A DNA stretch of 64,000 nt from Escherichia coli (lineage in GTDB: Bacteria > Pseudomonadota > Gammaproteobacteria > Enterobacterales > Enterobacteriaceae), in assembly GCF_002854065.1 (NCBI RefSeq), contig NZ_CP024147.1; one strand, 5' to 3'. How positions within the stretch are numbered: the first letter of the stretch is position 1; each line of letters starts with the position of its first letter. Shown here piece after piece: positions 34,970 to 64,000 of the stretch. Both the position numbers and the translations under genes were made by a program. A model generated the notes under the pieces. That model did no database searches. It was given only the letters and a program-made list of their open reading frames with translations, and was not told where the DNA came from.

Positions 34970-34990
34970 TTTTTCGTTATAATTTCTTAA

Positions 34991-40529: not shown

Positions 40530-40649
40530 TTATATTTTAAAGAAATCTGTCTTTATGGCAGATTTCTTTAATCTCATATAATCCTTATAAAAAATATAAT
40601 GTTTAACTCGTCATATTGCTTATAAAAAATCCCCGGTAATGACTCCAAC

Positions 40650-41153
40650 TTATTGATAGTGTTTTATGTTCAGATAATGCCCGATGACTTTGTCATGCAG
40701 CTCCACCGATTTTGAGAACGACAGCGACTTCCGTCCCAGCCGTGCCAGGTGCTGCCTCAGATTCAGGTTATGCCGCTCAATTCGCTGCGTATATCGCTTG
40801 CTGATTACGTGCAGCTTTCCCTTCAGGCGGGATTCATACAGCGGCCAGCCATCCGTCATCCATATCACCACGTCAAAGGGTGACAGCAGGCTCATAAGAC
40901 GCCCCAGCGTCGCCATAGTGCGTTCACCGAATACGTGCGCAACAACCGTCTTCCGGAGCCTGTCATACGCGTAAAACAGCCAGCGCTGGCGCGATTTAGC
41001 CCCGACGTATCCCCACTGTTCGTCCATTTCCGCGCAGACGATGACGTCACTGCCCGGCTGTATGCGCGAGGTTACCGACTGCGGCCTGAGTTTTTTAAAT
41101 GGCGGAAAATCGTGTTGAGGCCAACGCCCATAATGCGGGCGGTTGCCCGGCAT
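40650..41153 (-). CDS. insB: IS1 InsB' (expressed as InsAB' transposase by -1 frameshift at the A6C motif)
   Basis: 167 aa ORF recognised as IS1 InsB; an AAAAAAC slippery site (reverse strand) lies in the insA/insB overlap near 41090. Confidence 0.9.
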
Positions 41154-41347
41154 CCAACGCCATTCATGGCCATATCAATGATTTTCTGGTGCGTACCGGG
41201 TTGAGAAGCGGTGTAAGTGAACTGCAGTTGCCATGTTTTACGGCAGTGAGAGCAGAGATAGCGCTGATGTCCGGCAGTGCTTTTGCCGTTACGCACCACC
41301 CCGTCAGTAGCTGAACAGGAGGGACAGCTGATAGAAACAGAAGCCAC
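41072..41347 (-). CDS. insA: IS1 InsA
   Basis: 91 aa ORF ([30 protein letters not shown]…) recognised as IS1 InsA. Confidence 0.9.
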
Positions 41348-41663
41348 TGGAGCACCTCAAAAACACCATCATACACTAAATCAGTAAGTTGGCAGCATCA
41401 CCAAAATCCCCGTTCTCAGAGAAATAATATTTATTAAAATGGCAGGTCTTCTTTTTCTGATTACCGAAGACAAAGTGGCAATTACGTATAGTTTCCCGAT
41501 AAAGACACGACAGCAACATCCCGCATAAGGCATTGTTCTCTTTATCTTTGTACGGTACTTCATGGAACAGAGATTTTGACCTTGCGAATCGTGATGTCTG
41601 TTGGGGGCAATTTGCTCACTGAAGCGTGAGACTCGATTAAACGCACGAAACACAGAAATCAAA

Positions 41664-41700
41664 AAACCCGGCCACTTTTTTACAAAGTGACCGGGTAAAA
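41664..41700 (-). terminator. Terminator hairpin downstream of asnW (bidirectional-looking)
   Basis: CCCGGTCACTTTG…AAAGTGGCCGGG hairpin followed by TTTTTT on the minus strand. Confidence 0.55.
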
Positions 41701-41757
41701 ATAATTTTTATTTTTTAACTGCCTTGAGACTCATAGAGATGTCTCAAAACTAAAATT

Positions 41758-41833
41758 TGGCTCCTCTGACTGGACTCGAACCAGTGACATACGGATTAAC
41801 AGTCCGCCGTTCTACCGACTGAACTACAGAGGA
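41758..41833 (-). tRNA. asnW: tRNA-Asn
   Basis: Reverse complement is identical to the 76-nt asnT sequence; TTGACA-17-TAATAT promoter on the minus strand at 41852-41880. Confidence 0.95.
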
Positions 41834-41933
41834 ATCGTGAGAACGAGGCGAATATTAGCGATGCCCACCCACAATGTCAAAGCCTGTTTTTTAAATTTGA
41901 AATCGTTTGCTGAAATAATCTGCATTTTGTCGT

Positions 41934-43421
41934 TTATTCCGACACAGCTGGCTTTTTTTCACACTTTTGCGGTTCGGGTCGAGGGTATTTCCACAGCCAA
42001 CGTCCAGTAACCATTCGCCAGTAAAACAGCACGGCCCGCACAGCCCAGTCGGCAAACATTCCCATCCAGACACCAACCACACCCCAGCCAAGCATGATGC
42101 CCAGCACATAACCGACGACAACCCGGCAACCCCACATGCTCAACATAGAAACCCACATAGCGTAACGGGCGTCACGAGCCCCCTTAAATCCAGCGGGTAG
42201 CACCCATGAAGCGGACCAAATAGGCATAAATAAAGCATTTAGCCAAACCAGAATCACAACGACATGTTTAACCTGTGGATCCTGGGTGTAAAACGATGCC
42301 ATAACCCCGGCAAAGGGAGCCGTTAGCCAGGCGATGGCCGTTAATCCAAGAGTGGAAAGCCAGAACACATGCCGCAACTGAATCTCTGCTTGCGCTATCT
42401 GCCCTACCCCCAACCTTCGGCCTGTAATGATCGTAGAAGCAGAGCCGAGCGCACTTCCGGGTAAGTTGATAAGAGCCGCAATTGAAAACGCGATAAAATT
42501 TCCGGCAATAACACTGGTCCCCATCCCGGCAACGAACATTTGGGTTAATAACCGACCACTGGTAAATAACACTGATTCGACACTCGCTGGAATACCAATC
42601 CCCATGACTTCCCAGATAATGCTAAAATTCAGCGGTTTAAAATAGCTCTTTAACGAAATCCTTAGCGCAGGATTAAAACCAATCGCCAACACCCACAAAA
42701 TTGCAACTGCGCCAATATAACGAGAAATGGTTAAACCCAACCCAGCCCCGACAAATCCCAGTCCCGGCCAGGAGAAAAGGCCGTAAATCAATATGCCGCT
42801 AATAATAATATTAAGAATATTCAGGCTACCGTTAATCAGTAGCGGTATTTTCGTATTCCCTGCACCACGAAGTGCCCCGCTACCAATTAGAGTGATGGCA
42901 GCTGCTGGATAACTGAGTACCGTCAGCTCCAGATAAGTCAACGCCAGTGCTTTAACTTCTGTCGTGGCATCACCCGCGACGAAATCAATAATTTGCTCGC
43001 CAAAATGATGAATAAGCGTTGCCAACAGTACGGCAAACAACGTCATGATCACCAATGACTGCCGCGTCGCCACCCTCGCTCGTCGTCGATCCCGCTTACC
43101 GAGACTAAATGCCACAACGACAGTAGTACCAAGATCGATAGCAGCAAAAAAAGCCATAATGACCATATTGAAGCTGTCCGCCAATCCCACGCCGGCCATC
43201 GCATCTTTTCCCAGCCAGCTGACCAGAAAAGTGCTCAGAACCCCCATCAACAGGACACAGGCATTCTCCATGAAGATAGGAACAGCAAGCGGGGTTATCT
43301 CGCGCCAGAACAACACTTTGTAGCTCTTGCGTTTAGCGTGCCAGCGAGTGCCGTGAACAACCTGGCGTAAAGCAGAGGAGATATTCAAAGCCGACCTTAA
43401 TTGCAGAAAGTGAAACCACAT
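41934..43421 (-). CDS. yeeO: MATE-family efflux transporter YeeO
   Basis: 495 aa from MWFHFLQLRS…; 12-TM MATE architecture; the ORF track extension to 43577 is probably not translated. Confidence 0.85.
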   Translation of the reverse strand: MWFHFLQLRSALNISSALRQVVHGTRWHAKRKSYKVLFWREITPLAVPIFMENACVLLMGVLSTFLVSWLGKDAMAGVGLADSFNMVIMAFFAAIDLGTTVVVAFSLGKRDRRRARVATRQSLVIMTLFAVLLATLIHHFGEQIIDFVAGDATTEVKALALTYLELTVLSYPAAAITLIGSGALRGAGNTKIPLLINGSLNILNIIISGILIYGLFSWPGLGFVGAGLGLTISRYIGAVAILWVLAIGFNPALRISLKSYFKPLNFSIIWEVMGIGIPASVESVLFTSGRLLTQMFVAGMGTSVIAGNFIAFSIAALINLPGSALGSASTIITGRRLGVGQIAQAEIQLRHVFWLSTLGLTAIAWLTAPFAGVMASFYTQDPQVKHVVVILVWLNALFMPIWSASWVLPAGFKGARDARYAMWVSMLSMWGCRVVVGYVLGIMLGWGVVGVWMGMFADWAVRAVLFYWRMVTGRWLWKYPRPEPQKCEKKPAVSE

Positions 43422-43537
43422 TTCAAATAATGAGGGAGAATCAGCAAAGCTGCAAAGATTTTCGCCAACAAATTGTCTGCAAATGCAACAAACTGTTGAT
43501 AGAAACGGCAAACAGTTGGGGAATTTAAAAATCGGGT

Positions 43538-43565
43538 TTGACAAAAGATTTTTCGCCGTTAAGAT
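43538..43565 (+). promoter_or_regulatory. asnU promoter (sigma70 -35/-10)
   Basis: TTGACA, 16-bp spacer, TAAGAT upstream of asnU. Confidence 0.55.
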
Positions 43566-43581
43566 GTGCCTCAACAACGAT

Positions 43582-43657
43582 TCCTCTGTAGTTCAGTCGG
43601 TAGAACGGCGGACTGTTAATCCGTATGTCACTGGTTCGAGTCCAGTCAGAGGAGCCA
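43582..43657 (+). tRNA. asnU: tRNA-Asn
   Basis: 76-nt sequence identical to asnT. Confidence 0.95.
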
Positions 43658-43666
43658 AATTCCTGA

Positions 43667-43695
43667 AAAGCCCGCTTTTATAGCGGGATTTTTGC
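43667..43695. terminator. Bidirectional terminator between asnU and cbl
   Basis: AAAAGCCCGCTTTTATAGCGGGATTTTTG: hairpin flanked by an A-run and a T-run. Confidence 0.6.
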
Positions 43696-44645
43696 TATAT
43701 CTGATAATCAATTTCCTCTTCACTGCTTTCCATCACCTGCCGCTTGATATCCTCAACTGACAGTCCTGCATTACAAAGTTCCAGAAAGCGCCAGACATAG
43801 TTACGCTGAAGTTGTCCTCGCTTCAGTCCCAACCAGACAGTATTAGCATCAAAAAGATGCCGCGTATCCAGGCGGATTAAATTCTCTTCCTCTTGTTCGC
43901 CACTGGATTGCTCGGCAACTAATCCGATCCCAAGCCCAAGAGCAACATAGGTTTTAATGACATCAGAATCCTGCGCACTTAATACAATATCTGCCAGCAA
44001 ACCTTTGCGGGCAAATGCGTCATCAATACGTGAGCGCCCCGTAATCCCCTGTCGGTAAGTGATTAACGGCCACTTCGCTATTGATTCCAGCGTCAATGGT
44101 GAAATTTGCGTCAAGGGATGATCGTGTGGAACAAGCAAACTATGGTGCCAACGAAACCACGGGAAGGCGACGAGCTGCGGGTCATTACTCAAACGCTCGC
44201 TGGCGATACCAATATCAGCTTCGCCATTTTGCAACAATGTCGCAATTTCCTGTGGCGTCCCCTGGATTAGCTCGAGCCGAACCTCCGGGAAAAGTTCGCG
44301 AAAAGCTTTAATGACCTCTGGCAAGCTATAACGTGCCTGAGTATGCGTCGTTGCAATAGTGAGAACGCCAGACGTATCGTTGGTAAACAGGTCTGCAAGC
44401 CGACGAACATTACTGGCTTCATTCAGAATACGTTCTGCAATGACCAGTAATGCTTTGCCCGGTTCAGTCATGCCCAGCAGTCGCTTACCTCGTCGAACAA
44501 ATATTTCGATGCCAAGTTCATCCTCCAGTTCCCGAATATGACGGCTGACGCCTGACTGTGAGGTAAAAAGCATATTCGCAACCTCTGTCAGGTTGTAATC
44601 CTGACGTGCAGCCTCGCGGATTATCTTTAGTTGTTGGAAATTCAC
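43695..44645 (-). CDS. cbl: LysR-family regulator Cbl (sulfonate/sulfur utilisation)
   Basis: 316 aa ORF (MNFQQLKIIREAARQDYNLTEVA…) recognised as Cbl. Confidence 0.9.
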   Translation of the reverse strand: MNFQQLKIIREAARQDYNLTEVANMLFTSQSGVSRHIRELEDELGIEIFVRRGKRLLGMTEPGKALLVIAERILNEASNVRRLADLFTNDTSGVLTIATTHTQARYSLPEVIKAFRELFPEVRLELIQGTPQEIATLLQNGEADIGIASERLSNDPQLVAFPWFRWHHSLLVPHDHPLTQISPLTLESIAKWPLITYRQGITGRSRIDDAFARKGLLADIVLSAQDSDVIKTYVALGLGIGLVAEQSSGEQEEENLIRLDTRHLFDANTVWLGLKRGQLQRNYVWRFLELCNAGLSVEDIKRQVMESSEEEIDYQI

Positions 44646-44746
44646 GGTAAACTCCGGGCAGTTCAGATTTCCCGTTATTGTTAAAGTCTAATGCCCGGCA
44701 TAACAAATAATAAAAACCCGCATCTTATTCCATCCCGATATAACAC

Positions 44747-45664
44747 TTAGCTCACCAATTGCCACTGCCTTTTTTCCATCACTGGAGAACTAATCACTGA
44801 CATTAACAACTCTTTCACTGCCTGTGCCTGTGGCGATAAGTTCGCTCTGGCGGGTAAATTTAATGACAAAGAGAGACTCATGGAAGGAGTGGTAATGCGT
44901 GACATCCACCCATTTACTGCGCCACATAACGAACGCGCGGCCGATTCGGGTAATACTGCAACGCCCATGCCGCTGGCAATCGCTGCGGTAAGCGTGGCAA
45001 TAGACTCAATTTCACCAATAACTTTTGCCGTGAGTCGCCGTAGGGAAAAAGCCTCATCAACACGAAGTCTAATAGCACTGTAATCACTGGGGAGAAAGAG
45101 GTTCATTTGCGCAATAGCATTCACATCAACGCTTTGCCCCGGGCAATCTTGAGTTCCTACCAGAAAAAGATCTTCTTTCAGCAAAGCCTGACTGGATACA
45201 CCAGCCACAGGGGAATGCTCATAAATCACCGCCATATCGAGTTGGTGATTTATCAATTTTTCGTTAAGCACTGCACCACTATTTTCATGAAGATAGATAA
45301 CGATCTCCGGAAATTCAGCGCGAACCGCCTGTAATAAGGGCATGGTGATGGATGACGCAGCGGTTCCTGGTGCAAAGCCAATCGAGACTTGCCCCGATAA
45401 TGCCTGACCAACGTTATGCACCGCCAGTTGGGCCTGTTCACACTGACGTAAAATGGCCCGCGCATGGGTATAGAGAATTTTTCCGGCGTCTGTTGGTGTA
45501 ACGCCCCGCTTTGTACGGATCAAAAGTTGTTGATTTAACTCACCTTCCAGTGTGGCAACCTGCTGGCTGAGCGCTGGTTGTGCGATATGCAATACTTCAG
45601 CAGCCTGGGTCAGGCTACCAATATCTACAATTTTTACGAAGTATTTCAGGCGTCTGAAGTTCAT
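44747..45664 (-). CDS. nac: LysR-family nitrogen assimilation control protein Nac
   Basis: 305 aa from internal ATG (MNFRRLKYFVKIVDIGSLTQAAE…). Confidence 0.9.
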   Translation of the reverse strand: MNFRRLKYFVKIVDIGSLTQAAEVLHIAQPALSQQVATLEGELNQQLLIRTKRGVTPTDAGKILYTHARAILRQCEQAQLAVHNVGQALSGQVSIGFAPGTAASSITMPLLQAVRAEFPEIVIYLHENSGAVLNEKLINHQLDMAVIYEHSPVAGVSSQALLKEDLFLVGTQDCPGQSVDVNAIAQMNLFLPSDYSAIRLRVDEAFSLRRLTAKVIGEIESIATLTAAIASGMGVAVLPESAARSLCGAVNGWMSRITTPSMSLSLSLNLPARANLSPQAQAVKELLMSVISSPVMEKRQWQLVS

Positions 45665-45943
45665 GTTGCCTCCGGTTTTTAAGAATCGGCCCAAGCGCCG
45701 CCATTACTTACAACCAGATTGCAAGATGCTTGCCAGTTTTATTTTGGTGTTGATGTACAAGCTAACCAACTGTCAAATAAGAGATTATGATAGATTCGTC
45801 ATTTGCTCCTTTAATCAGCTGTCGCGTTCCCCTGCCCTATAAAAGGAGGGTATGCACCACGATGGTTCATTACCCAATAAGATTGAAAGCTCACCACTTT
45901 GTTGAAATTGACAGCAAACAAACAAAAAAATGCATTTCACCCT

Positions 45944-45972
45944 TTGACATCACCATGCACTGCCATTAATAT
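45944..45972 (+). promoter_or_regulatory. asnV promoter (sigma70 -35/-10)
   Basis: TTGACA, 17-bp spacer, TAATAT, then GCGCCCC discriminator. Confidence 0.6.
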
Positions 45973-45990
45973 GCGCCCCGTTCACACGAT

Positions 45991-46066
45991 TCCTCTGTAG
46001 TTCAGTCGGTAGAACGGCGGACTGTTAATCCGTATGTCACTGGTTCGAGTCCAGTCAGAGGAGCCA
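45991..46066 (+). tRNA. asnV: tRNA-Asn
   Basis: 76-nt sequence identical to asnT. Confidence 0.95.
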
Positions 46067-46071
46067 AATTC

Positions 46072-46101
46072 AAAAAAGCCTGCTTTCTAGCAGGCTTTTT
46101 G
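46072..46101. terminator. Bidirectional terminator between asnV and ldtA
   Basis: AAAAAAGCCTGCTTTCTAGCAGGCTTTTTG. Confidence 0.6.
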
Positions 46102-46121
46102 CTTTCTAATTACCAACGCTC

Positions 46122-47054
46122 TTAAAACATCTGTCTTGAACCAGAACTAATTTGCACAGGCATTCCCGATCGACGTTGCAACGCAGCATTTGCGCGATTT
46201 ACATCAACTTCTTGCCCGTTGATAAACGCCCGCAAAGATGGGGTTACCGGCAATGGCACTTTTCGGTCAGACTCATATTCTGCACGATTGCGCGACAACG
46301 GCTCATGAACTTCCAGCCAGTTCGAGCCATCTGGTTCAGTGGTGTATTTTACTGGCTGGTCGATAATTTGCACACGCGTCCCAACAGGAACATTATCAAA
46401 CAGATATTTGATATCGTCATTGCGCAGACGAATACAGCCCTGACTTACCCGGAGCCCAATACCAAAATTGGCATTGGTACCATGGATGGCATACAACCTG
46501 CCAATATAAATCGCGTACAGCCCCATGGGATTATCGGGGCCCGCAGGAACAAATGCGGGCAAACTCTCCCCTCGTTTCGCATATTCGCGCCGAGTGTTCG
46601 GCGTTGGCGTCCAGGTTGGAGCTTCTTGTTTACGTTCAACGGTAGTCACCCAGTTACGCGGGGTTTCTCGCCCAGCCTGGCCGATACCAATAGGAAAGAC
46701 TTCCACAGTATTACTGTCTGGTGGGTAGTAATAAAGACGCATCTCAGCGACGTTAACAACAATCCCTTTACGAACAGTGTCGGGCAAAATCAGTTGCTGC
46801 GGAATGGTGAGTTGCGAGCCAGACTTCGGCAAAAAAACATCAGCGCCCGGGTTCGCTTCCAGCATGTTACTTAACCCTTGCCCGTATTGTGCGGCAAAAG
46901 TCTCCAGCGGCTGGGTATTGTGATCAGGAACAGTTACAGTAAACGACTGCCCCACTAAACGGCTACCCTCTGGAGGTAATGGATAAGTTACCGCCAGGCT
47001 AGTATGGCTGGCAAAAAGCAGAGCAAATGAGCAAAGAATATTTACACGACGCAT
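46122..47054 (-). CDS. ldtA: L,D-transpeptidase LdtA (ErfK)
   Basis: About 310 aa with signal peptide and YkuD-type catalytic domain, recognised as ErfK/LdtA. Confidence 0.85.
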
Positions 47055-47118
47055 CATGTCCCTTTCCTATGTCGCGAAAGCTATCCGTTAAGTATAGCTT
47101 TTATCAGACTTTTCGTTT

Positions 47119-48198
47119 TTAACTGTTCAAATCAGAAGTCGTATTCCCCGGTAGAACAATATTACTGGCAGCAAGTTCGCCCATGTTGTTGTATATCGCA
47201 CAGGCAGCTTCGATGATGGGCATCGCCAGAGCTGCGCCACTCCCCTCACCTAAACGCATCTCCATATTGAGATAAGGCTCCAGCCCCAAATGCGAGAGCG
47301 CTATACGCGCGCCTTTTTCTGCCGACAGGTGAGAAGGAATGAGATACGGTTTTATCGCAGGAGACATCTGGCAGGCTGCGAGCGCAGCAGCATAAGAAAG
47401 AAATCCATCCAGCAACACGGGTAAACCGCAGGAAGCAGCACCTAACATCACTCCAGCTATTCCGACCAAATCAAATCCACCCACTTTTGCCAGGACATCA
47501 ACACCATCCTGAGGATTTGGTTGATTCAACGTAATCGCCCGACGCACAACATCAATTTTATTAGCCAGTTTATCTGTCGGCAGGTTTGCGCCAATCCCAA
47601 CCACTTCTTCAGGATCCCGGCCAGTGATTGTGCTGACTATTGCTGCTGCCGGTGTCGTGTTTGCCATCCCCAGTTCACCTACACCAAACAGCGTGACACC
47701 GTTTTTTGCCAGCTCCTGCGTATAACATATGACGTCCAAAAGCAACTTTTCAGCCTGACGGCGACTCATTGCCGGAGCTGAAGCAATATTGCTGCTACCT
47801 CGTGCGACACGCATGTTGATAAGCCCGGGGATAGGCTCAGCAGTATCAATACCAACATCAATTACGTGGACGTTAGCGCCCGCTTGTTCTGCCAGCACAC
47901 ACACGCCGGTTGTTCCACGGGTCATATTTTCAGCCTGTATGGCTGTCACTTCTTTTGGAGAAATAGCGACCCCTTCCTCCCAGACGCCGTGATCGGCACA
48001 CATAACCAGTACCGCTTTTTTGCCCACATGCGGTATGCCATTCAACCCCGGCATTCCTGCCAGTTGTATGGCAAGCACCTCCAGCTTTCCCAGGCTACCA
48101 ACAGGTTTGAGTAACCCGTCAATATGCCGTTGTGCACGCGACATAGCGGTAGAATCGATGGCTGGGATCGTATTCAGTAAATCGGCAAGTATTTGCAT
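47119..48198 (-). CDS. cobT: Nicotinate-nucleotide:dimethylbenzimidazole phosphoribosyltransferase CobT
   Basis: 359 aa ORF recognised as CobT. Confidence 0.9.
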
Positions 48199-48209
48199 CT
48201 CACGTCTCT

Positions 48210-48953
48210 TTATAGCAGTGCCAGCAGGAAGACCAGTTCACCAAGCTCTATGGCTGCTCCCAGCGTATCGCCCGTTTGCCCGCCCAGCGTACGTTTGAGA
48301 AGCTGACCGAGGATGAAAATCGCCACCATCGTCACCACCATAGCAGCCACACCATGCATACCCGGCAATAATACGGCAGCAAAAATAGCGGCTAAGCCGA
48401 GTGTGACGCAGGTTTGTCGCCCATCAATTTTGCCAATGAACACATTGCCAAGCCCTTCTTCCCGCGCATAACGATGACGATACATCAATAATGCGGCAGT
48501 CCCGCGGCTGACCGCACATGCTGCCGCCAGCGATGCAAGGATCGATTCGCCACGCAGAGCCAACTCGCTTAACACCAGAATCTTTGCCAGTACCACAAAA
48601 ATCAATGCCAGACCGCCGTGGGTGCCTAAACGGCTATCACGCATGATTTCCAACATGCGATCGCGGCTACGTGCAGAAAATACGCCATCACAGGTATCAG
48701 CGAGGCCGTCCAGATGGAATCCCCCGGTCATCAGCACCAGCACAAGTACGCTAAACAGTGCCGCCAGTGGTGCGCCACACCATGCCTGCAGCACCATGAA
48801 GACCAGCCCGCTAATCGCGCCAAGCAATAATCCAATCAAAGGAAAAGTAATAATACCGCGAGAATAATGCTCGAAATCCAGTCCCTGGGACCAGCGACGC
48901 GGTACAGGCAGACGCGTAATAAATGAGAGCATCGCCCAAAATAATTTACTCAT
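48210..48953 (-). CDS. cobS: Cobalamin-5'-phosphate synthase CobS
   Basis: 247 aa from internal ATG ([18 protein letters not shown]…); overlaps the cobU stop by 4 bp. Confidence 0.9.
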
Positions 48954-49495
48954 TTGATTTTTACTCCAATACCCGAAACCACCAGCCATACTTCATTTGC
49001 CGCAGCGGCCAACTGCTGATTTACCCGCCCGGCAATATCACGAAAATGTCGTGCCAGACGACTCTCCGGCACAATCCCCATTCCCACTTCGTTAGTCACT
49101 AATACAACCTTTGCGGGGCAACGTTGGCAGGCAGCAATCAACGACTGAATCTCAGCATTAATCGCCTGTTCCATCGCCTGATAATCCCATTCATCAGGGT
49201 CTTTATCGCCGCCATAATCAAACAACAGATTAGTCACCATTGTGGTAACGCATTCAAGCAACACAACCTCATTCGGGTTAATGTCTGCATGAATTAATTC
49301 ATCAAGATGTTGCCAGCGCTCCACTGTGCGCCAGTGCTCCGGGCGGCCTTGCCGATGATGTTCTATCCGTGCAGCCATCTCATCATCAAGGATTTGCGAG
49401 GTAGCGATATACAGAACCTGTGAAGAGTCCCCAATAAGCGCCTCTGCGTGGCGACTCTTCCCGCTCCGTGCGCCCCCCGTCACCAAAATCATCAT
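48950..49495 (-). CDS. cobU: Adenosylcobinamide kinase / adenosylcobinamide-phosphate guanylyltransferase CobU
   Basis: 181 aa ORF with P-loop GGARSGKS. Confidence 0.9.
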
Positions 49496-50520: not shown

Positions 50521-51715
<1,195 letters not shown>

Positions 51716-54041: not shown

Positions 54042-54159
54042 GACGCCTCCATTAACACTGTTTTTATATACAGTATAGTTGCAAAATTAAAACCACAAGG
54101 AATGAGTGTTGATTATGCGAGCAGACTCGCACTCCTGCCAGTCTGCTGCAAAAGAAAGG

Positions 54160-55332
54160 TCAGGCCTTATGGTGGAAATAATCACTCAGGCGGGAAAACA
54201 TGCCGCCTTCCCCGACAGATTCCAGGGTAACCAGCGGCCAGTGCGCCACCTGTTTATCACGGTCGTAAAGTTCAATTTCCCCTACCCGCTGATGGGCGCT
54301 AATTGGCGCGGTGAGCTCTTTACCATCAAGGGTATATTTGGCTTTGATATGTGGAATTTCGGCTTTCGGTAGCACCATCCAGAACTCTTGTTCCGTTCCC
54401 AGGTCGATATTTTCTTTATCGCCATACCAGATGCGTTCCGTTCCGACCTTTTTCCCACGGTGCAAAATTTGCACCGTAGTAAAGTTTTGTTGCCCCCAAC
54501 GCAGTAATTTTCTTGCCTCTTCCTCACGACCTTTTGCACTGTCAGCCCCCATTACCACTGCAATGAGACGACGCTGCCCATCTACAGCCGAAGCAATGAG
54601 ATTAAACCCGGCACCAGAAGTATGACCCGTTTTCAGGCCGTCAACATTCATGGTTTTATCCCACAACAACCCGTTACGGTTTTGCTGGGTGATACCGTTC
54701 CAGGTGAGACTTTTCTCACTGTACATATGATAAAACTCGGGCTCGCCGTGGATGATAGCGCGAGAAAGCACAGCTAAATCATAAGCCGAGCTATGCTGGC
54801 CAGGTGCATCCAGACCATGCACTGTTTCAAAATGCGTATCCTTGAGATGCAGCTTCTCGGCATAGTTGTTCATCATTTCAACAAACTGCCGTTGCCCACC
54901 GGCAATATAGTCAGCCAGAGCAACACAAGCGTCATTTCCGGAATCCACAATTAAACCACGGCTTAAATCACGTACCGATACGCGATCGCCCTCTTTCAAA
55001 AACATCAGTGAAGAACCGACAAACACCGGATTATCTTTCGCCCACGCATCGCGCCCCACGGTGACAATATCGTCTGGCGTAATGCGATGACTATCGATAG
55101 CGCGATCCACGACATAACCCGTCATCAGCTTTGTCAGGCTGGCGGGATTGCGCTGTTGATGCTCATTACCCGCGGTGAGGATCTGTCCGGTGGTGTAATC
55201 CATCAGTACCCAGGACCCGGCTTGAATCTGTGGAGGCTGAGGTGAAAAAGGAATGTTTTCCGCCGCAAAACCAGACGATAAGTTAAAAACGAACAAAGAA
55301 GCAGCAATAATAAGACGGCGTTTCAACAGCAA
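54160..55332 (-). CDS. dacD: D-alanyl-D-alanine carboxypeptidase DacD (PBP6b)
   Basis: 390 aa with signal peptide and S11 peptidase motifs (SxxK: ASLTK; SGN). Confidence 0.9.
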   Translation of the reverse strand: MLLKRRLIIAASLFVFNLSSGFAAENIPFSPQPPQIQAGSWVLMDYTTGQILTAGNEHQQRNPASLTKLMTGYVVDRAIDSHRITPDDIVTVGRDAWAKDNPVFVGSSLMFLKEGDRVSVRDLSRGLIVDSGNDACVALADYIAGGQRQFVEMMNNYAEKLHLKDTHFETVHGLDAPGQHSSAYDLAVLSRAIIHGEPEFYHMYSEKSLTWNGITQQNRNGLLWDKTMNVDGLKTGHTSGAGFNLIASAVDGQRRLIAVVMGADSAKGREEEARKLLRWGQQNFTTVQILHRGKKVGTERIWYGDKENIDLGTEQEFWMVLPKAEIPHIKAKYTLDGKELTAPISAHQRVGEIELYDRDKQVAHWPLVTLESVGEGGMFSRLSDYFHHKA

Positions 55333-56045
55333 ACCCTCAGGAGTTTCAAATAGCTGTTCTTTTTACGGAAATACTTATGAACTGGCTGGAATAAAGTGCA
55401 AGAAAATGTGACTACCCTAGCATTTTTATCTGACATGATCTGTTGCCACTCGCTGCCAAATTGTGGCGCTAAAGCTGATTAGCACGGTGATATTTGATAC
55501 TCTGGCAGACAGCAGAAATAACGGATTTAACCTAATGATGAATGACGGTAAGCAACAATCTACCTTTTTGTTTCACGATTACGCGCAACACCCCTGAGAA
55601 CCGCCATGAATAAGGGTTTCATGATTTGTGATTTTAGTTTGGTACGCAATTTGGTACACAACACAATTTTCACTTCAGCGGGTAGTCATCAAACTCACCA
55701 TAACGAGCATCGTTGATGATGTATGTGATCACCACAAATATCACATCTGGACTAGTTCCGTCTTCATGCGCAGGTATCTGTTCACGCCTCCCTTTCTGCA
55801 AATCCTAAAGATGAGATTTTGGGGTTTTGGGATATCTTTTTATCCTCAGTTCTCTATCCATTCTACAAAGCAGTAATGAACCATCACTATGTGATAGTGA
55901 GGCATCCGCTACATTAAGCGCAGAGAAATGATGCAGTGGTGGTCGGACTGGATTGATGAAAAGGTGTGATCGGTTAGCGCAAGACGAATCACCACCCTCG
56001 CCAGTTTTGAGTTGTTTTGCGCTAATTTTTTACCCCACCTCTGCC

Positions 56046-56076
56046 CCATCAAAAGAAAACCCGCTCTAGCGGGTTC
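56046..56076 (-). terminator. Terminator hairpin immediately downstream of the acyltransferase gene
   Basis: On the minus strand, AACCCGCTAGAGCGGGTT hairpin followed by TTCTTTTG, right after the stop at 56082. Confidence 0.5.
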
Positions 56077-56081
56077 ATGTC

Positions 56082-57152
56082 TCAGGCCTCTTTGCCCTTC
56101 TCTATCGCTGAGGGCTTGTCAGGAAGCAATGCGCTTATACGTCCCTTAAGGTACTTGTACATTCTGACGTCGATGAATGCTGCGTATAAATACGCTAGCA
56201 CTATCGAGACAGCAATCATTTTTACCGCCCCCATAAATGGATCTCCCTCAACAATACCGGTAATCATCACAGGGAAATGGAGAAGGTACAGAGGGAAGCT
56301 GATAAACCCTAAAAACTGGACTGGTGCAGAGTAAAGGAACCGTTTAACCAGGGACTCATCATTCATGTAATCGACAGTTAGCAGGGGAAGAAATGCCACC
56401 ATGTAGAAATAATCCATCCTGTTGGTATGCGAAGGTTGAGCATAGAGCCCGGCAAAGCATACAAACAGACACATAGCCAAAAAAACATTCTTTTGAGGTA
56501 GTTTAGTGAAACTCTCGTACCATTTTAATTTTATGATCGAGTACATACCCGATCCCATCAAAAGACATGATGATGCAAAAACAAAATTGTACATCCCGAA
56601 AAGCTCTGGACTACCGAGCCCTCTGGCAGAAACAACAGCCAGATAAATAAATGCCAAAATAGAAATACATAACCTTGAAAGCGGCCCCATTCTCAAGAAC
56701 AGAACTGGAATCAACATGGACGCCCAAAATTCTATGCTGACACTCCACGAAGGTTCATTTATCAAATTGAATGATAATGGGGTAGACCCATGTATAAATG
56801 CTAAATTCGCTACCCATGTCCTGATACTAAATACGTAATCACCTGGCACATAACCACCATTAAGGCTATTTACGTAGTAAATGATTACCATTATCACTGA
56901 TGATATAAAGGTAAGAGGCCACAGTCTTGCCAGTCTATTCAAAAAATATGACGGGATAGACGCCCCATTTCTTACTGAGTGGGTAAGCACAAATCCCGAT
57001 ATGATGAAAAAATATGCAACAGCCAAGTGAGGGCCGTTGAATGGCCCATCATTTTTCCAACCAGTAACAGCATTGATGGCGTGATTTAGGAGCACTGCGC
57101 ATGCAAAAAGGCCGCGCAAACCATCAACAGCATAGAAGCGTTTAATTTCCAT
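56082..57152 (-). CDS. Acyltransferase family 3 integral membrane protein (OafA/Oac-like; candidate surface-polysaccharide O-acetyltransferase)
   Basis: 356 aa, about 10 transmembrane segments, N-terminal AVDGLRG…H motif typical of acyltransferase_3; lies downstream of tail-fibre genes where phage conversion genes commonly sit. Confidence 0.7.
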   Translation of the reverse strand: MEIKRFYAVDGLRGLFACAVLLNHAINAVTGWKNDGPFNGPHLAVAYFFIISGFVLTHSVRNGASIPSYFLNRLARLWPLTFISSVIMVIIYYVNSLNGGYVPGDYVFSIRTWVANLAFIHGSTPLSFNLINEPSWSVSIEFWASMLIPVLFLRMGPLSRLCISILAFIYLAVVSARGLGSPELFGMYNFVFASSCLLMGSGMYSIIKLKWYESFTKLPQKNVFLAMCLFVCFAGLYAQPSHTNRMDYFYMVAFLPLLTVDYMNDESLVKRFLYSAPVQFLGFISFPLYLLHFPVMITGIVEGDPFMGAVKMIAVSIVLAYLYAAFIDVRMYKYLKGRISALLPDKPSAIEKGKEA

Positions 57153-57271
57153 AACAATTTATTTAAAAAAAGAAAAATTATACTAGAAATATATCATCAA
57201 CATCTATGCCATTGATGATTAAGTGATGGTTGTCACGGTTTTGTGTTTCTGGCTGGAATGCTGGCAGTGCT

Positions 57272-57460
57272 TTACTCGCTTGACTCAGGATCGGTGAATA
57301 CTCCATCTTCATAAATCCATCCAATTCTGCATGGTATTCCGTCTATTTTAACAACCTGATAATCATCAAAAATATGCCCCTCACCATCCCATATAACAAT
57401 ATTTACAACTATTCCATCTGTAATTAATGCATATCTCATGCAAACTCCTCCACAAGACAA
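57272..57460 (-). CDS. Hypothetical small protein downstream of the tail fibre (possible tail-fibre-associated protein)
   Basis: 62 aa ORF overlapping the 3' end of the tail-fibre gene by 25 bp; no recognisable family. Confidence 0.3.
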
Positions 57461-58362
57461 ATACCATCAGCACCTTCACCACCATAAAAACGCGTGGAGA
57501 AGACCTGCGTGTCATATGCGCCAGCGCCGCCACCGCCAGGGACTAATGCTTTCGCAATTCTCGGTGAATATACAGTACACTGCCCCGCTCTTCGGCTGCC
57601 ACCCCAAAAGCTTGAACCGCCGTACCCATTAAGGAACCTAGTATTATTTTGGCCATCTCCGCCATCTCCGCCGGCTAGATTTACATCACCACCAGACCCG
57701 GCAACTCCAACGCCGCCTGATGCATATACAGTGGAAGCAGTGGACGGGTTTCCGCCTGTGGCAACCATCCCACTAAATGTTGAGTTACCGCCTTTTGTTG
57801 CCTCAGTTCCGCCAGCACCGATAACCACGGCAAAGTTTGTGATGTCAGCAATATTGAACCATTTGATACCTGTAGCGCCTGCAGCCCCCCCAGCACCGGA
57901 AAAGTTATCGGTTGGGGAACCACTATTAAAAGCGCCACCTCCGCCACCACCCCCTCCCGTTAGAGTTACTTTGATGCGCTTCGTCAGCGGGTTTAGCGTT
58001 ACTGTTTTTGATGAGGTGATCCACTGCTCGGCAATCTTCCTACCTACGTATCCGTTGGTATCTCCCAAATCAAGGTTTGCGAGAGCCGTTTTCACCGTGC
58101 CATCCGATTTGATATCGCCAAACGGATTCTTGCGGCTTAACAGCAGAGCACGAAGCGCGGTAAGCAACTGGTCGTGCCGCGCCTTCTCCAGACTGGCACC
58201 AGATGCCTCAACAACGCTACAAAGTTCTTCCTGCAACATGTCAAAGTAGTCATCATCCAGATCGGTGGCAGGCGTGCCAGTCTGGGGGTTACCACGGGTA
58301 AAACCGTTCTTACCCGCGCCGAACTTATCCTTCTGCGCGGTTTTCGTGTCTATACGATGCAT
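57436..58362 (-). CDS. Phage tail fibre protein (Gly-rich)
   Basis: 308 aa; conserved phage-fibre-like N-terminus then Gly-rich repeats including GGGGGGGG, at the fibre position of the module. Confidence 0.65.
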
Positions 58363-58365
58363 GGA

Positions 58366-58950
58366 TTACTCCGGATATTTAAAAATTACGTAGGTATGCG
58401 ACGGGCAGAGTTTGTTAAGCACACACTCGACAACGGTGTCGCCCCAGATACGCAGTGCGGAATCACAGGGATCGCCACATGTCATCCAGGTGGTGTTGGT
58501 GGTGGTTGGCATGTTGACATGCCAGTAATACCGCCATTCCGGCGCATTCACCGCGTCAGTACAGGCCGATGAGCAGGTGAACGTGCTTTTGTCGTATCGC
58601 GTGATGGTGGCATCTGGTCTGCCCAGGGCAGCAAGCTGTGCAAGATAAAAATCCTCGTTGATGCCGCCCGCCAGGTTAACCTTCGCATCCAGCCGTTGCT
58701 GACGCTGGCGAAGGGTCTGCGTTCCCGCCGGAATACATTCATCCGGCAGACCGCACAGACGCTCCCAGCGGTTTATCAGTTCAGTGGTGGTGCGCGGATC
58801 CAGCTCCCGCATCAGGGCATCCGCACGCTGATGAACACGGGTTAATGACGGTGCCGCACCGGCAATCGCCGGATCGCTGGCTGACCACGCCGGACCGGGC
58901 GGCAACAGTGCCGATAACAGGCGGATGTAATCATCGTTTGTCACGTCCAT
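58366..58950 (-). CDS. Phage tail protein, YmfQ / Mu gp48-like (DUF2313)
   Basis: 194 aa ([22 protein letters not shown]…), positioned between the baseplate J gene and the fibre gene. Confidence 0.6.
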
Positions 58951-59999
58951 GAAATCGTCCCCAGTACCGCCAGTTCGTTTTTCGCAATGGAGATATTGTC
59001 CACCGGTGCAAGCAACTGATGGCTGTATTCCCCGTTCGCACCGGAAATCGCCTCACTGATACGCGACACCTTCAGTTCTCCCTGCGGATAACCATCACGC
59101 AGCAGGAACGAACGCAACTCCGCGGTGATGGCAGCCCGTATTTCCGGTGTATCCGGCGTCACGCGGATATGAAAATCCACCGTATGTGCCACCGGCCTGA
59201 ACACATACAAGTCAGAACCTGCCACCGGGGCCAGTGGCCCGATATGTTGTATTGCCGCCGTTTCCGTTGATTCTTCCGGAATGGGATTAATCAGGTCACT
59301 GCTGGCAATCATCACACCGACAGTTCCCGTTCCCATCCAGTGACGGTATGTCCATGCGCGGGTAATGCCGGGCACTTCTTTAGCCCAGACGACATAGTCC
59401 CCGTCAGCCCCGCCCTGCGGCGTCCAGTAATACCGCTCAATGACGCGGGCGCGCCACGTTTCCAGATCTTCAGTATCGAATCCGCCAGTCAGGGTATCTG
59501 CAACACCGGAAGACGGCAGACCATTCACCGGCGTGACTAGGATTAATGCCGTACCGTCGTCAGCGTTACCGACCGCGCCTGCATTTGAGCAAGTGATCGG
59601 CACACGCAGGACACCACCGGAGCTGGTTGCATCGGCAGTTGCCGTGTACTGAACCAGGTCATCGCGCTGAATCACGCTCCCGGCAGTCACCTTCAGGCCA
59701 TCGCTGACACCTTCCCAGCGCATATACCCGCTGGCAGCCGTGGCCCCCTTGCGCGGACACCGTTTCATCGCAGCATGTCGCGCCAGCCAGGACTCATCGC
59801 ACAGGTCAGGCAGCATATTCATTGCCAGATAATCGATGTACCCGTAGACCGTATGCAGCGCCGCCGCATACACCTTTGCCCGCACGTCTTCATCCATGCG
59901 CCGGAGCGTGTTGCTGACGTCCAGCCTGGCGAATAAATCGTTACGGAGCATACTGATATTTTCTGCCAGCGTCGGGCGCTGAAATTCACTGTCCGCCAT
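58941..59999 (-). CDS. Baseplate J-like protein (Mu gp47-like)
   Basis: 352 aa with baseplate_J family features; overlaps neighbouring genes. Confidence 0.7.
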
Positions 60000-60414
60000 G
60001 CGTTATCGCACTCCACAGATCATCAAAAGAAATCATTACCGGTCCGTCACGACGCCAGAGAGTGATACTGTTACCCAGTTCATTAATCCCGGTACGGCGG
60101 ATATCCAGATCAATACGGGACACCACGCCGTCATCAATCATCCATTGCAGGCATTCGCGGATATATCCCCTTACCGTCTGCACCAGCTGATTGGTCAGTT
60201 TGCTGCGCTGAAGCAGCCACAGTCGGGAGCCGTAACGGTCATTCTGTACCGCAGGCCAGGTATCCCCCCACCATCCCATCGGGACGTCGGCGTTGTCATC
60301 AGGCTCCGCCCGCCGCCAGGTAAACAGGGAAATCACCACGGCGCGGGTCAGCGGATCCAGCGGTGCGCTGGCGCAGGTGCGTTTACCGTTCACCGTCAGC
60401 CACAGTTCCATCAT
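59986..60414 (-). CDS. Phage GP46-family baseplate protein (Mu gp46-like)
   Basis: 142 aa, position and size as for Mu gp46. Confidence 0.55.
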   Translation of the reverse strand: MMELWLTVNGKRTCASAPLDPLTRAVVISLFTWRRAEPDDNADVPMGWWGDTWPAVQNDRYGSRLWLLQRSKLTNQLVQTVRGYIRECLQWMIDDGVVSRIDLDIRRTGINELGNSITLWRRDGPVMISFDDLWSAITHGGQ

Positions 60415-60959
60415 GCCTCCATCGCTTTATCAGGTTTGTCGGTGTTACTGCCCTGACCGTTCTCTCTGTGACGATGCCCGTTATAGGCAAGCCGCATCGC
60501 TGACATGGTGGTGCCGCCGGAGTCGCACAGGTCTTTCACCTGTCCGGTCACTTCCAGGTCCATTTCAAAACGTGCTTTAGGTGAATTGCGAAACGTGATC
60601 GTTTTACCTGCACCGTCCACCACGATCCCCTCCCGGGTCAGCGTCACGGACTGCCCCTGATCGTCATAGACAGCCACCTCACCCGTCTGCAGCCCTTTCA
60701 GGCGGTAGCGCCGGTCCGACACCGTAACAACCACCGCATGAGAACGGTCGCCATCCGGAAACAACACCACCGCTTCCGCACCGCTGTTTGCCCTTGCGGT
60801 AAAACCGTAGGGTTCAAGATGTTCAACCCCGGCTTTGGGTTCACCGGCAATCAGGGACACATCCACGGTCTGACATTTCGTGGCGGCACTGATGCTTTTC
60901 ACCACGGCCCGCCCAATCAGGCCGAGGAGTTGTCGCTGCATGGCTTCAATCGTCCTCAT
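60411..60959 (-). CDS. Baseplate assembly protein V / spike (Mu gp45-like)
   Basis: 182 aa; gpV-type OB-fold N-terminus; 4-bp overlap with the downstream gene. Confidence 0.6.
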   Translation of the reverse strand: MRTIEAMQRQLLGLIGRAVVKSISAATKCQTVDVSLIAGEPKAGVEHLEPYGFTARANSGAEAVVLFPDGDRSHAVVVTVSDRRYRLKGLQTGEVAVYDDQGQSVTLTREGIVVDGAGKTITFRNSPKARFEMDLEVTGQVKDLCDSGGTTMSAMRLAYNGHRHRENGQGSNTDKPDKAMEA

Positions 60960-62038
60960 CAGAACGGGTCCTCCTGTACTCTGGCTTTTTTCTTTTTCCG
61001 CGCGCCGGGGGCTTCGGGTTCAGGCAGATAAGCATCAGGTGGGCCGACACGGATTTCCGTCAGGGTGCCGTTCTGGTCCTGAGTAAACGTGACTTCCGAA
61101 ACAAGCAGTTCGGTATTGTCGAAACCACAGACCGGATCAAAGACAATCACCCGCTGGTTGGGCTGCCACAGCGTACCGTTACACTGTCGCCAGCCCTGCA
61201 CCACATAGGTGGTTTCATCCGTCCGCGCCGCCCGTTGTCTGGCTTCAAAGTCCGCACGGGCAATACAGCCTGCCCCCGTAGCCTGCCCTGTCTGCCTGAT
61301 ATACATCGGACGGTAACGGGCAATAAATGCGTCCTCTGTGCGGGCCCGCAGCGCGGTGGTGGTGGCCTCACCGAAATCATCGTCGTTTCCGGCACGCTGC
61401 CCCGCCACCTGGTAAACAGAAAACCGCTCCCGGATACTCTTCTCCGTATCGCAGGAAAGGATGTTTTCCCCGAGTACCAGCGCAGTATGTGCCCGAGTTG
61501 AGCCAATACCGCCAATCACCAGCCTGCCGTGCGGGTCGTCGTAAGCCAGTGCCTGCTGCTGACCGAGTATTTTGTTGATTACCTCAATCACCGTTTCACC
61601 GTGATCAGGCTGAACATCAGGAATAACACCCGACGGCGCACCGCTGTTCACCACCTCAATGCCGAAAGGCGCAGCAAGCGCCTGCGCAATCTGCACCAGC
61701 GAGCGTCCGTTAAACTGTGTCGGTTCGGCTGCACAGTCAATCAGGTCAGCCGTCAGACTACGTCCGACAATACCGGTGCTGACCGAACGGGAATCGTAAC
61801 GAACGGGCGTCGCCTCCACCCAGCCGGTGATCACCAGCTCATCACCAATCAGCACTTCCACTTTTGAACCGTTTTTAATGCGCGGCTGAAGCGTGGTGAT
61901 ACCCTCATCTCCCGGCCACTGGCGGGTGATCTCCACACTGAAATCCCGCGCCAGCCGTTCAATACCGGCACCGATGCGCACCGATGTCCAGCCATTCCAC
62001 TCCCGGCCATTTACCCGTAGCGTGACATTGTCGTTCAT
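60959..62038 (-). CDS. Mu P-like tail/baseplate hub protein (Mu gp44-like)
   Basis: 359 aa (MNDNVTLRVNGREWNGW…), position and length as for Mu P. Confidence 0.6.
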   Translation of the reverse strand: MNDNVTLRVNGREWNGWTSVRIGAGIERLARDFSVEITRQWPGDEGITTLQPRIKNGSKVEVLIGDELVITGWVEATPVRYDSRSVSTGIVGRSLTADLIDCAAEPTQFNGRSLVQIAQALAAPFGIEVVNSGAPSGVIPDVQPDHGETVIEVINKILGQQQALAYDDPHGRLVIGGIGSTRAHTALVLGENILSCDTEKSIRERFSVYQVAGQRAGNDDDFGEATTTALRARTEDAFIARYRPMYIRQTGQATGAGCIARADFEARQRAARTDETTYVVQGWRQCNGTLWQPNQRVIVFDPVCGFDNTELLVSEVTFTQDQNGTLTEIRVGPPDAYLPEPEAPGARKKKKARVQEDPF

Positions 62039-63375
62039 TGCACTGGCACCTTCAGAGGGATCACCGGCACAAAGCCGGGATGCGTAATGGCATTACGCCG
62101 GATAATGTCCGCGTCACGCGCCGCGTTATCAAACCAGGTCGCCGCCAGCACCAGCGCGGGTAAAACCTCATCCGGTGTGCGCTGAATGATCCGTGCAGAC
62201 TGTTCAAGGCGCGTGTTGATATCCGCATTCAGATCTGCTTTCACCCGGCGCAGCGCCAGAAACAGCGCATCACTGGTTGTACGGGACAACTCCTTATCAA
62301 TTGCCGTATTCAGTGTGTCGCGAATGTCAGTCAGTTCTTCCCACGTCGGCAGGTCAACCGTGTTTTTCACCGCCGGTGCATTGTTCAGTGCCGGATGCGT
62401 GACGGAAGGCCAGCCAGTGCTCTGCGCGGGTGTTGTTGCCTGCCCCACTGCGGCATTCTGCATCACCGCGGAAGTTGTTGGCGCAGGCAATCGGGTGACG
62501 GCATACGCCGCTTCGCTGATTGCGGTCGTACGAAGGGTGCTGGCAACCACGTTACGCTGCTGCGTCGCCGTGGCGGTGGTTTTACTGTCCGTTTTCCAGA
62601 CGCCGCGCGGTTGCAGATCGCTGCCGAGGCTGACACCGGAAAGCGTTTTGATCATGGTGACCAGGTCGCTGGCGTTACCATAAAGGCGTTTCCCGGTACG
62701 CCACATTTTCTGCACCTGCTCAACGAAATTTTTGCCTGACGATGGCGGCGGCAGAAGTACCGAGATATCCCCCTGCAACAGCCTGGCGGCATCCGATACG
62801 GCAGAATCCACCACTTTCATCGCATCAGAAACATACCCCAGCATTATGCTGGCATTACCGATAACGTCGTTCTGCACGAAATCCGCAACACCATCGATAC
62901 TGAAACCGCTGAAGCTGTCACTGATGCAGTCATCCAGTGCAGAACAGGATGACATCAGCGTCTGCGCCGTCGCCGCACCTGATGTGGGGTAAGAGAGTTC
63001 TCCTGCTTCGACAAACTTCAGGTCAAAGCGGACAATACGCCCTTCACTTTTCGATGTGCTGACCCGAACTTCCCCGTCAACACAGACTTTCAGCTCACCA
63101 TATGTCGGGTGGACAAGCGTGCCTGGACCGGGTTTATTCAGCGCGTCAATCAGGCGATCGCGCTGGTCAAAGCAGTCATCTCCCACCACATAAGCTGTGA
63201 TGGACGGGCGGAAAGTGATTTTCCCCAGGTCTTCGGTATAGGGTTTGTCGCGGTTTGGGTATTCATGCGTTTCAACCCGACGTCCTACCGGGGCCCCTTC
63301 ATCTTCTACCTTGAACGGAACGCCGCGAAACGACGCTTCAACCAGTCTGTCTTTCCACGCCATTGTCTGCACCAA
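62035..63375 (-). CDS. DNA circulation protein N-like tail protein (Mu gp43-like)
   Basis: About 440 aa with conserved N-terminal …ASFRGVPFKVE…; start is ATG at 63363 or upstream TTG/GTG at 63375/63372. Confidence 0.6.
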   Translation of the reverse strand: MVQTMAWKDRLVEASFRGVPFKVEDEGAPVGRRVETHEYPNRDKPYTEDLGKITFRPSITAYVVGDDCFDQRDRLIDALNKPGPGTLVHPTYGELKVCVDGEVRVSTSKSEGRIVRFDLKFVEAGELSYPTSGAATAQTLMSSCSALDDCISDSFSGFSIDGVADFVQNDVIGNASIMLGYVSDAMKVVDSAVSDAARLLQGDISVLLPPPSSGKNFVEQVQKMWRTGKRLYGNASDLVTMIKTLSGVSLGSDLQPRGVWKTDSKTTATATQQRNVVASTLRTTAISEAAYAVTRLPAPTTSAVMQNAAVGQATTPAQSTGWPSVTHPALNNAPAVKNTVDLPTWEELTDIRDTLNTAIDKELSRTTSDALFLALRRVKADLNADINTRLEQSARIIQRTPDEVLPALVLAATWFDNAARDADIIRRNAITHPGFVPVIPLKVPVQ

Positions 63376-63465
63376 TATGATTTGTTATAAGCTACTCTGT
63401 TTCAGACGCTTCTTTCGAAGCGCCAGAGAACATTTACCTTTAAGGAGAGGTATAAATGGAAATGT

Positions 63466-63523
63466 TTTTGCCGTTAATACTGGGTTTGTTGCTAGCCGTT
63501 TTCATAGGACGGTGGGCTTGGTA
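63466..63523 (+). pseudogene. 5' fragment of a plus-strand gene interrupted by IS1 (hydrophobic N-terminus MEMFLPLILGLLLAVFIGRWAW)
   Basis: Strong SD AAGGAGAGG 6 nt upstream of the ATG at 63466; the frame runs into the IS1 end where TAA is created at the junction. Confidence 0.35.
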
Positions 63524-64000
63524 ATGACTCCAACTTATTGATAGTGTTTTATGTTCAGATAATGCCCGATGACTTTGTCATGCAGCTCCACCGATTTTGA
63601 GAACGACAGCGACTTCCGTCCCAGCCGTGCCAGGTGCTGCCTCAGATTCAGGTTATGCCGCTCAATTCGCTGCGTATATCGCTTGCTGATTACGTGCAGC
63701 TTTCCCTTCAGGCGGGATTCATACAGCGGCCAGCCATCCGTCATCCATATCACCACGTCAAAGGGTGACAGCAGGCTCATAAGACGCCCCAGCGTCGCCA
63801 TAGTGCGTTCACCGAATACGTGCGCAACAACCGTCTTCCGGAGCCTGTCATACGCATAAAACAGCCAGCGCTGGCGCGATTTAGCCCCGACATAGCCCCA
63901 CTGTTCGTCCATTTCCGCGCAGACGATGACGTCACTGCCCGGCTGTATGCGCGAGGTTACCGACTGCGGCCTGAGTTTTTTAAGTGACGTAAAATCGTGT
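63521..64000 (-). mobile_element. IS1 insertion sequence (partial; continues past the window end), same orientation as the IS1 at 40635
   Basis: Starts with GGTAATGACTCCAACTTATTGAT and is near-identical to 40635-41114 over the visible 480 bp; encodes the InsB' C-terminal portion (63535-63912 ORF). Confidence 0.9.

Follow-up and report, generated by a model that had tools for sequence, protein, structure and literature searches.

A stretch of 64,000 nucleotides of the Escherichia coli contig NZ_CP024147.1 (assembly GCF_002854065.1), hereafter called the window, was analyzed around two copies of the insertion sequence (IS) IS1, named here IS1-left and IS1-right. A preliminary description of the window had placed these copies in the same orientation, flanking some 22 kb, and this was upheld: IS1-left is a complete element of 768 bp, and IS1-right starts at position 63520 on the same strand, with 481 bp lying within the window. 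This length is enough to fix the orientation, and the opposite orientation of the second copy, which had been named as a possible refutation, was excluded. Over the 481 bp the two copies differ by six mismatches (98.75% identity), the first 336 bp forming the longest identical run. The repeat finder reported the pair as a 300-nt direct repeat, 100% identical (40635-40934 and 63520-63819), with a start-to-start distance of 22,885 bp.

The interval bracketed by the two copies consists of native chromosome followed by the end of a prophage. Its gene content was obtained by mapping to the annotated CUWW06 chromosome and to that of K-12 MG1655, the tRNA genes being located with ARAGORN (Table 1). 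All of the genes listed earlier (asn tRNAs, yeeO, cbl, nac, ldtA, cobTSU, IS5, yeeX, yeeA, sbmC and dacD) were recovered in this way. Three of the four tRNA-Asn(GUU) genes were found inside the interval and asnT alone outside, as had been said. The term "phage remnant" is not established: what lies in the window is the end of a prophage (7.9 kb, 55584-63519). Apart from the region of IS5/CP4-44, gene order in the interval agrees with that of K-12, and 4,499 complete genomes have it as one contiguous stretch at the corresponding locus.

Anatomy and Distribution of the Two IS1 Insertions

The features looked for in IS1 were a length of ~768 bp, imperfect terminal inverted repeats of ~23-35 bp and a target duplication of 9 bp (8-11 bp). 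IS1-left showed all of them. Its ends, GGTAATGACTCCAACTTATTGATAG and GGTGATGCTGCCAACTTACTGATTT, are imperfect inverted repeats matching at 22 of the first 35 positions, the outer end being an intact right inverted repeat (IRR). The insA and insB' frames are joined by a -1 frameshift at a motif of the A6C type, TTAAAAAACTC, at position 304. The element lies in the AT-rich spacer between the convergent yeeN and asnW, and since the 9-bp sequence AAAATCCCC is duplicated on both of its own sides, it is a simple stand-alone insertion. IS1-right interrupts a prophage gene of 145 codons, for which PHROGs returned only families of unknown function. The insertion point is located before an A-rich run, typical of IS1 targets, and the two sites, in the spacer and in the prophage, both adjoin A/T-rich runs.

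By alignment, the window is a near-clone of CUWW06 (100.0% identity over positions 1-25000, 100% over 30286-36289 and 99.993% over 36286-49744). Within 34 kb, CUWW06 carries one more IS1 than the window (9-bp overlap, 49736-49744) and one more IS5 (4-bp overlap, 36286-36289), and these extra copies indicate that IS transposition is active in the lineage. At least 40 places in CUWW06 match IS1. Among 5,426 complete E. coli genomes, CUWW06 was the only one with an insertion at the identical base to that of IS1-left. No IS1 is present in CUWW06 at the site of IS1-right, where the prophage runs on through the tape measure, tube, sheath and head genes. Neither of the IS1 copies in the matching region of CUWW06 is identical to IS1-right (98.75%). 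Together with the six differences in 481 bp, this shows that IS1-right did not arise as a fresh copy of IS1-left.

A megablast search of the complete genomes gave no match covering the IS1-right junction, and the exact junction pattern was absent from species-representative genomes, viral contigs and metagenome contigs. Exact-match look-ups of two prophage proteins, the DNA-circularization protein and the acyltransferase, led to a draft contig of GCA_035821435.1 in which the identical junction is present. This contig of 11,950 bp corresponds to positions 51644-63593 of the window with a single mismatch (99.992% identical). One end of it lies 74 bp into IS1, across the identical junction, and the other 76 bp into IS5. 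As it is present in an independent draft, the IS1-right junction is real and belongs to a small sub-lineage. E. coli B was set aside as a source, since none of the complete genomes, which presumably include B strains, matched the right-hand junction, and Shigella, which is outside the genome collection, is made unlikely by the 100% match to CUWW06 over positions 1-25000.

Table 1. Features of the window in and around the IS1-bracketed interval.
Feature	Position	Strand	Source
asnT position, tRNA-Asn(GUU), outside the interval	26578-26653	+	ARAGORN
Target-site duplication, left copy, 9 bp, AAAATCCCC	40626-40634		sequence dissection
IS1-left, complete IS1 of 768 bp	40635-41402	-	sequence dissection; IS1 family transposase with programmed frameshift annotated at the identical CUWW06 site
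insB' frame of IS1-left, open, ending ...HYLNIKHYQ	40650-41153	-	sequence dissection
insA of IS1-left, 91 codons	41072-41347	-	sequence dissection
Target-site duplication, right copy, 9 bp, AAAATCCCC	41403-41411		sequence dissection
Bracketed interval, 22,117 bp (native chromosome 41403-55583, prophage end 55584-63519)	41403-63519		mapping onto CUWW06 and K-12
asnW position, tRNA-Asn(GUU)	41758-41833	-	ARAGORN and CUWW06
yeeO, MATE efflux transporter	41934-43421	-	CUWW06 mapping
asnU position, tRNA-Asn(GUU)	43582-43657	+	ARAGORN and CUWW06
cbl, LysR-type regulator	43695-44645	-	CUWW06 mapping
nac, LysR-type regulator	44747-45664	-	CUWW06 mapping
asnV position, tRNA-Asn(GUU)	45991-46066	+	ARAGORN and CUWW06
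ldtA	46122-47057	-	CUWW06 mapping
cobT	47119-48198	-	CUWW06 mapping
cobS	48210-48953	-	CUWW06 mapping
cobU	48950-49495	-	CUWW06 mapping
IS5-like element (transposase 50667-51647)	50517-51719	-	CUWW06 and K-12 comparison
tmaR/yeeX	51820-52149	-	CUWW06 mapping
yeeA	52321-53379	-	CUWW06 mapping
sbmC, 154 codons	53577-54041	-	CUWW06 mapping
dacD	54160-55326	-	CUWW06 mapping
Prophage tail/baseplate end, 7.9 kb	55584-63519	-	CUWW06 and K-12 comparison
Prophage acyltransferase	56082-57152	-	CUWW06 mapping
Prophage tail fibre	57436-58362	-	CUWW06 mapping
Mu-like baseplate genes	58366-62038	-	CUWW06 mapping
DNA-circularization protein	62035-63363	-	CUWW06 mapping
Interrupted prophage gene (145 codons; 21 codons before IS1-right)	63457-63519	+	sequence and CUWW06 comparison
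IS1-right, 481 of ~768 bp within the window: IRR end, open insB' frame, frameshift motif	63520-64000	-	repeat finder and sequence dissection

Origin of the Pair

The pair very probably corresponds to two independent and ordinary IS1 insertions in an IS1-rich lineage, lying 22.9 kb apart in the same direction by chance and constituting a passive substrate for recombination. The two insertions are independent because IS1-left has a target duplication of its own, the copies are different variants, CUWW06 has the left copy without the right one, and the DNA between them is native. IS1-left would have come first, in the yeeN-asnW spacer, and IS1-right, the other sequence variant, would have been inserted later in the small prophage gene beside dacD. 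The interval is native syntenic chromosome plus a prophage end and not cargo, and the pair is without function. For 40 copies in 4.65 Mb, the formula N(1 - exp(-Nd/L)) gives an expectation of approximately 7 pairs of neighbours no more than 22.9 kb apart, roughly half of which would be direct. A pair at such a spacing is no more than chance would produce in an IS1-rich genome, IS1 itself being a known element and no chance match.

Some considerations weigh against this reading. The far end and the right flank of IS1-right lie beyond the window, so a simple insertion is a prediction at this site, and the copy may have been left behind by a past deletion or inversion. Deletion or amplification of the interval may also take place at low frequency within the source culture. 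In addition, the expected number of pairs was calculated with a lower bound for the IS1 copies (at least 40, counted in CUWW06).

The first of these points can be turned into an explanation in its own right, in which IS1-right is the boundary of a past rearrangement, either an adjacent deletion or an IS1-IS1 recombination, that took away or displaced the remainder of the prophage and left a true remnant. The DNA beyond IS1-right would in that case be something other than the tape-measure side of the phage. Only the tail and baseplate end of the prophage is within the window, the lineage offers at least 40 IS1 places (CUWW06), and large IS1-mediated deletions are documented (PMC4173774 and PMC10569738). 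The IS5 inside the interval resembles such a scar, with its CTAG and CTAA flanks and ~10.9 kb of K-12 DNA missing. This explanation is nevertheless unlikely, although it deserves to be kept in mind: the whole prophage is in place in CUWW06, the closest complete relative, the A-rich run beside the insertion point is typical of an IS1 target, and the content of the window nowhere contradicts a simple insertion.

The sequence expected from a simple insertion can be written out. The remaining ~287 bp of IS1 would end in ...GTTGGCAGCATCACC, followed by GGTGGGCTTATAAAAAAGAAAAGACC. Past the IS1 end GGTGGGCTTATAAAAAAGAAAAG would be read, the duplicate GGTGGGCTT coming first and then ATAAAAAAG. The right flank after GGTGGGCTT would be ATAAAAAAGAAAAG. 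Probes for the predicted truncated product (113, 151 and 152 aa) found no match from GCA_035821435.1; as evidence for a rearrangement this is weak to uninformative, being dependent on the gene caller and on how the contigs end.

Far less probable than a rearrangement is a composite IS1 transposon of the Tn9 or r-determinant type, moving as a unit through its outer IS1 ends. The preliminary description had proposed that the pair can behave as a composite element, and two same-orientation copies do surround a segment close to the r-determinant in size, IS1-left having kept insA, the frameshift site, insB' and the outer IRR intact. In a composite unit the target duplication would be found only at the outer flanks, but AAAATCCCC lies on the inner as well as the outer side of IS1-left, which was thus inserted alone. 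Neither empty sites nor several locations were seen for the segment: it is colinear with K-12, occupies the same locus in the 4,499 other genomes where its native interior is contiguous, and has its right junction in no complete genome. Moreover, CUWW06 possesses IS1-left without IS1-right, and cbl-nac is found at one place per genome. As regards its origin, the composite element is contradicted by the duplication around IS1-left and by the native, K-12-like order of the interior, and it was rejected.

Equally improbable, and also rejected, is an assembly artefact in which a repeat was misplaced at the prophage. Assemblies are well known to go wrong at IS copies, and the junction was missing from all 5,426 complete genomes; against an artefact, the independent draft joins 74 bp of IS1 to the same base, and the six differences between the copies indicate that they were resolved and not collapsed.

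Variation at the Insertion Sites and Inside the Interval

An IS1 was present in the yeeN-asnW spacer (window 40530-41757) in 195 of the 5,426 complete genomes. In 194 of them, among which WCHEC005237, L012, it lies approximately 85 bp from the site of IS1-left, in the same orientation. This copy is an insertion independent of IS1-left, as was demonstrated for WCHEC005237, and the spacer is, like the prophage site, a recurrent IS1 target. Around the prophage site, other IS1 copies were observed within ~240 bp (window 63399-63640) in at least three other strains. One is at window position 63399/63400 in the orientation of IS1-right, a second about 89 bp to the right of the IS1-right site in the opposite orientation, and a further, separate one is found in PEC122 (H31). 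The short stretch separating the DNA-circularization gene from the divergent 145-codon gene is thus a local IS1 hot spot beside an A-rich run: at least four lineages acquired an IS1 there separately, the bases hit being different and either orientation occurring.

The IS5-like element occupies the position of ~10.9 kb of CP4-44 DNA in K-12 (positions 13944-24883 of the K-12 locus L013), which comprises yoeA fragments, IS2, agn43/flu, yeeR-yeeW, cbeA/cbtA and an EutP/PduV-like gene. The element is bordered by CTAG at its left end and by CTAA at its right end, two different tetranucleotides that do not form a clean 4-bp target duplication. The unequal flanks, together with the gap relative to K-12, would fit a past IS5-associated deletion or an IS5-IS5 recombination inside the interval. 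K-12 has its own IS5 at a different site (window 49886-49889), to which the IS5 of the window is only 96.2% identical. The 635-bp segment 49886-50520 is 100% identical to K-12, compared with 99.4% and 98.6% for the flanking core DNA; in the CUWW06 annotation it holds an IS4-family transposase fragment and a small hypothetical gene.

Between positions 49736 and 63519, 180 of the 198 differences from CUWW06 were concentrated in the acyltransferase and the tail-fibre tip (window 56000-58000). This region is a swapped cassette at the prophage end, in two genomes that are near-clonal elsewhere, and the version in the window matches four other draft genomes at 99.9%. The sbmC gene has 154 codons in the window and in the GCA_035821435.1 contig, compared with 157 in CUWW06, K-12 and most relatives, owing to a 9-bp in-frame deletion near position 53914.

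Two further sets of repeats were seen. The four tRNA-Asn genes are located within blocks of 104-111 nt that are 84-99% identical (26554-26664, 41751-41857, 43558-43668 and 45967-46077). The asnT and asnV blocks are direct repeats, 99% identical and 19.4 kb apart, and the asnW block is inverted relative to the others. These blocks are additional, shorter recombination substrates overlapping the IS1-bounded interval. Tandem repeats with a period of 609 bp, 63-96% identical, occupy positions 30001-32800 inside the ~8-kb gene of a protein with Ig-like domains (a region of the yeeJ-type inverse autotransporter), and correspond to the repeated Ig-like domains.

Possible Recombination Between the Two Copies and Its Consequences

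The direct orientation of IS1-left and IS1-right, with their 336-bp identical run and 98.75% identity over 481 bp, makes them suitable direct repeats for RecA-dependent exchange. A perfect identity of 336 bp is above the minimal length for efficient RecA-dependent recombination. We infer that recombination between these two copies can occur. Unequal crossing-over between sister chromosomes would duplicate the interval in tandem, the two units being joined by an IS1 (63519-IS1-41403), and a reciprocal or intramolecular exchange would delete the 22.1-kb interval and leave a single hybrid IS1. The complete, species-representative, viral and metagenome genomes and contigs searched contained no deletion or duplication junction of this pair, and one other assembly had the right junction. 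The preliminary description had presented the pair as a substrate for homologous recombination: the capacity is supported by the identical run and by published precedent, and no product of this pair appeared in the collections searched.

In E. coli, both deletion and tandem amplification have been documented between direct repeats of IS1 (PMC11253626, PMC4173774, PMC7986276). A close case for amplification is that of the arn operon of E. coli B, where chromosomal IS1 copies (IS1-18 and copies upstream) also surround native genes and recombination between them yields tandem amplification and unstable copy-number variants (PMC11253626). That amplification was observed, is selected by polymyxin and depends on one particular IS1 copy, whereas the present pair has neither an observed amplification nor a known selectable benefit; its segment is also smaller, ~23 kb compared with roughly 90 kb or more. 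In the r-determinant of R100/NR1, direct IS1 repeats likewise enclose some 20 kb, and recombination that requires recA either releases the unit as a circle retaining a single IS1 or amplifies it (PMC7986276). The r-determinant is, however, a recognised composite unit that lies on a plasmid and has resistance genes as its cargo, in contrast with a native chromosomal interval next to which IS1-left was inserted alone.

For deletions, the long-term evolution experiment provides a close parallel. Approximately 70% of the large rearrangements occurred there through IS-IS recombination, including deletions of 8-23 kb between same-orientation IS1 copies, some of them newly inserted (PMC4173774). Those events were seen in evolved REL606 clones, whereas the present pair is unrecombined and belongs to a different natural lineage. 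Nitrofurantoin heteroresistance involving nfsB is a comparable example from clinical E. coli, with an IS1-associated loss of tens of kb; that report documents the phenotype and the deletion junctions, neither of which exists for the present pair (PMC10569738).

A constraint on the deletion of the interval, which had been suggested earlier from the tRNA genes, is plausible in view of three of the four tRNA-Asn(GUU) genes lying inside, of the retention of cbl-nac and of a tRNA deletion study. In that study, strains with one remaining copy of multi-copy tRNA genes grew at ~0.75 of the wild type in rich medium, and the asn copies were not equivalent to each other (bioRxiv 10.1101/2022.06.16.495782). 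With the cbl-nac segment as query (window 43695-45664; 5,428 matching places), the two genes were found kept in 5,409 of the 5,426 complete genomes at a coverage of at least 80%, almost always once per genome. Losses and duplications affecting the core of the interval are thus not commonly fixed in natural strains. Records classed as plasmids accounted for four of the 5,428 places. An apparent loss of asnW-cobU in FHI_NMBU_03 was rejected as a natural deletion and is probably an assembly gap at the opening point of the record: yeeN lies 79 bp from the record end, an IS3 fragment and wzxC are at its start, and his, gnd and the O-antigen region would be missing as well.

From the gene content one could speculate that the 22-kb unit is a standing source of copy-number heterogeneity in the lineage through unstable tandem amplification, an idea to which we give very little credence. 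If it were true, the dose of sbmC (a gyrase inhibitor), yeeO (efflux), ldtA and dacD (cell wall) and three tRNA-Asn genes would be raised. A selectable phenotype could then appear in a subpopulation, such as tolerance to gyrase poisons, by analogy with the amplification of arn.

Deletion or amplification as a reading is generic. It fits any same-orientation IS pair, its mechanism is textbook and the kind of feature is already known. Pairs of IS1 in the same direction are routine in IS1-rich strains, and the present one reveals no new mechanism, element or biology and matters little. For work on this particular strain, its annotation is useful in that the segment from yeeN to the prophage is a predictable site for IS1-mediated deletion or duplication. 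Short-read assemblies would be expected to break at positions 40635, 50517 and 63520, as the related draft does. The lesson is a familiar one: where an E. coli lineage is rich in IS1, the placement of its IS elements sets which chromosomal segments can vary in copy number.

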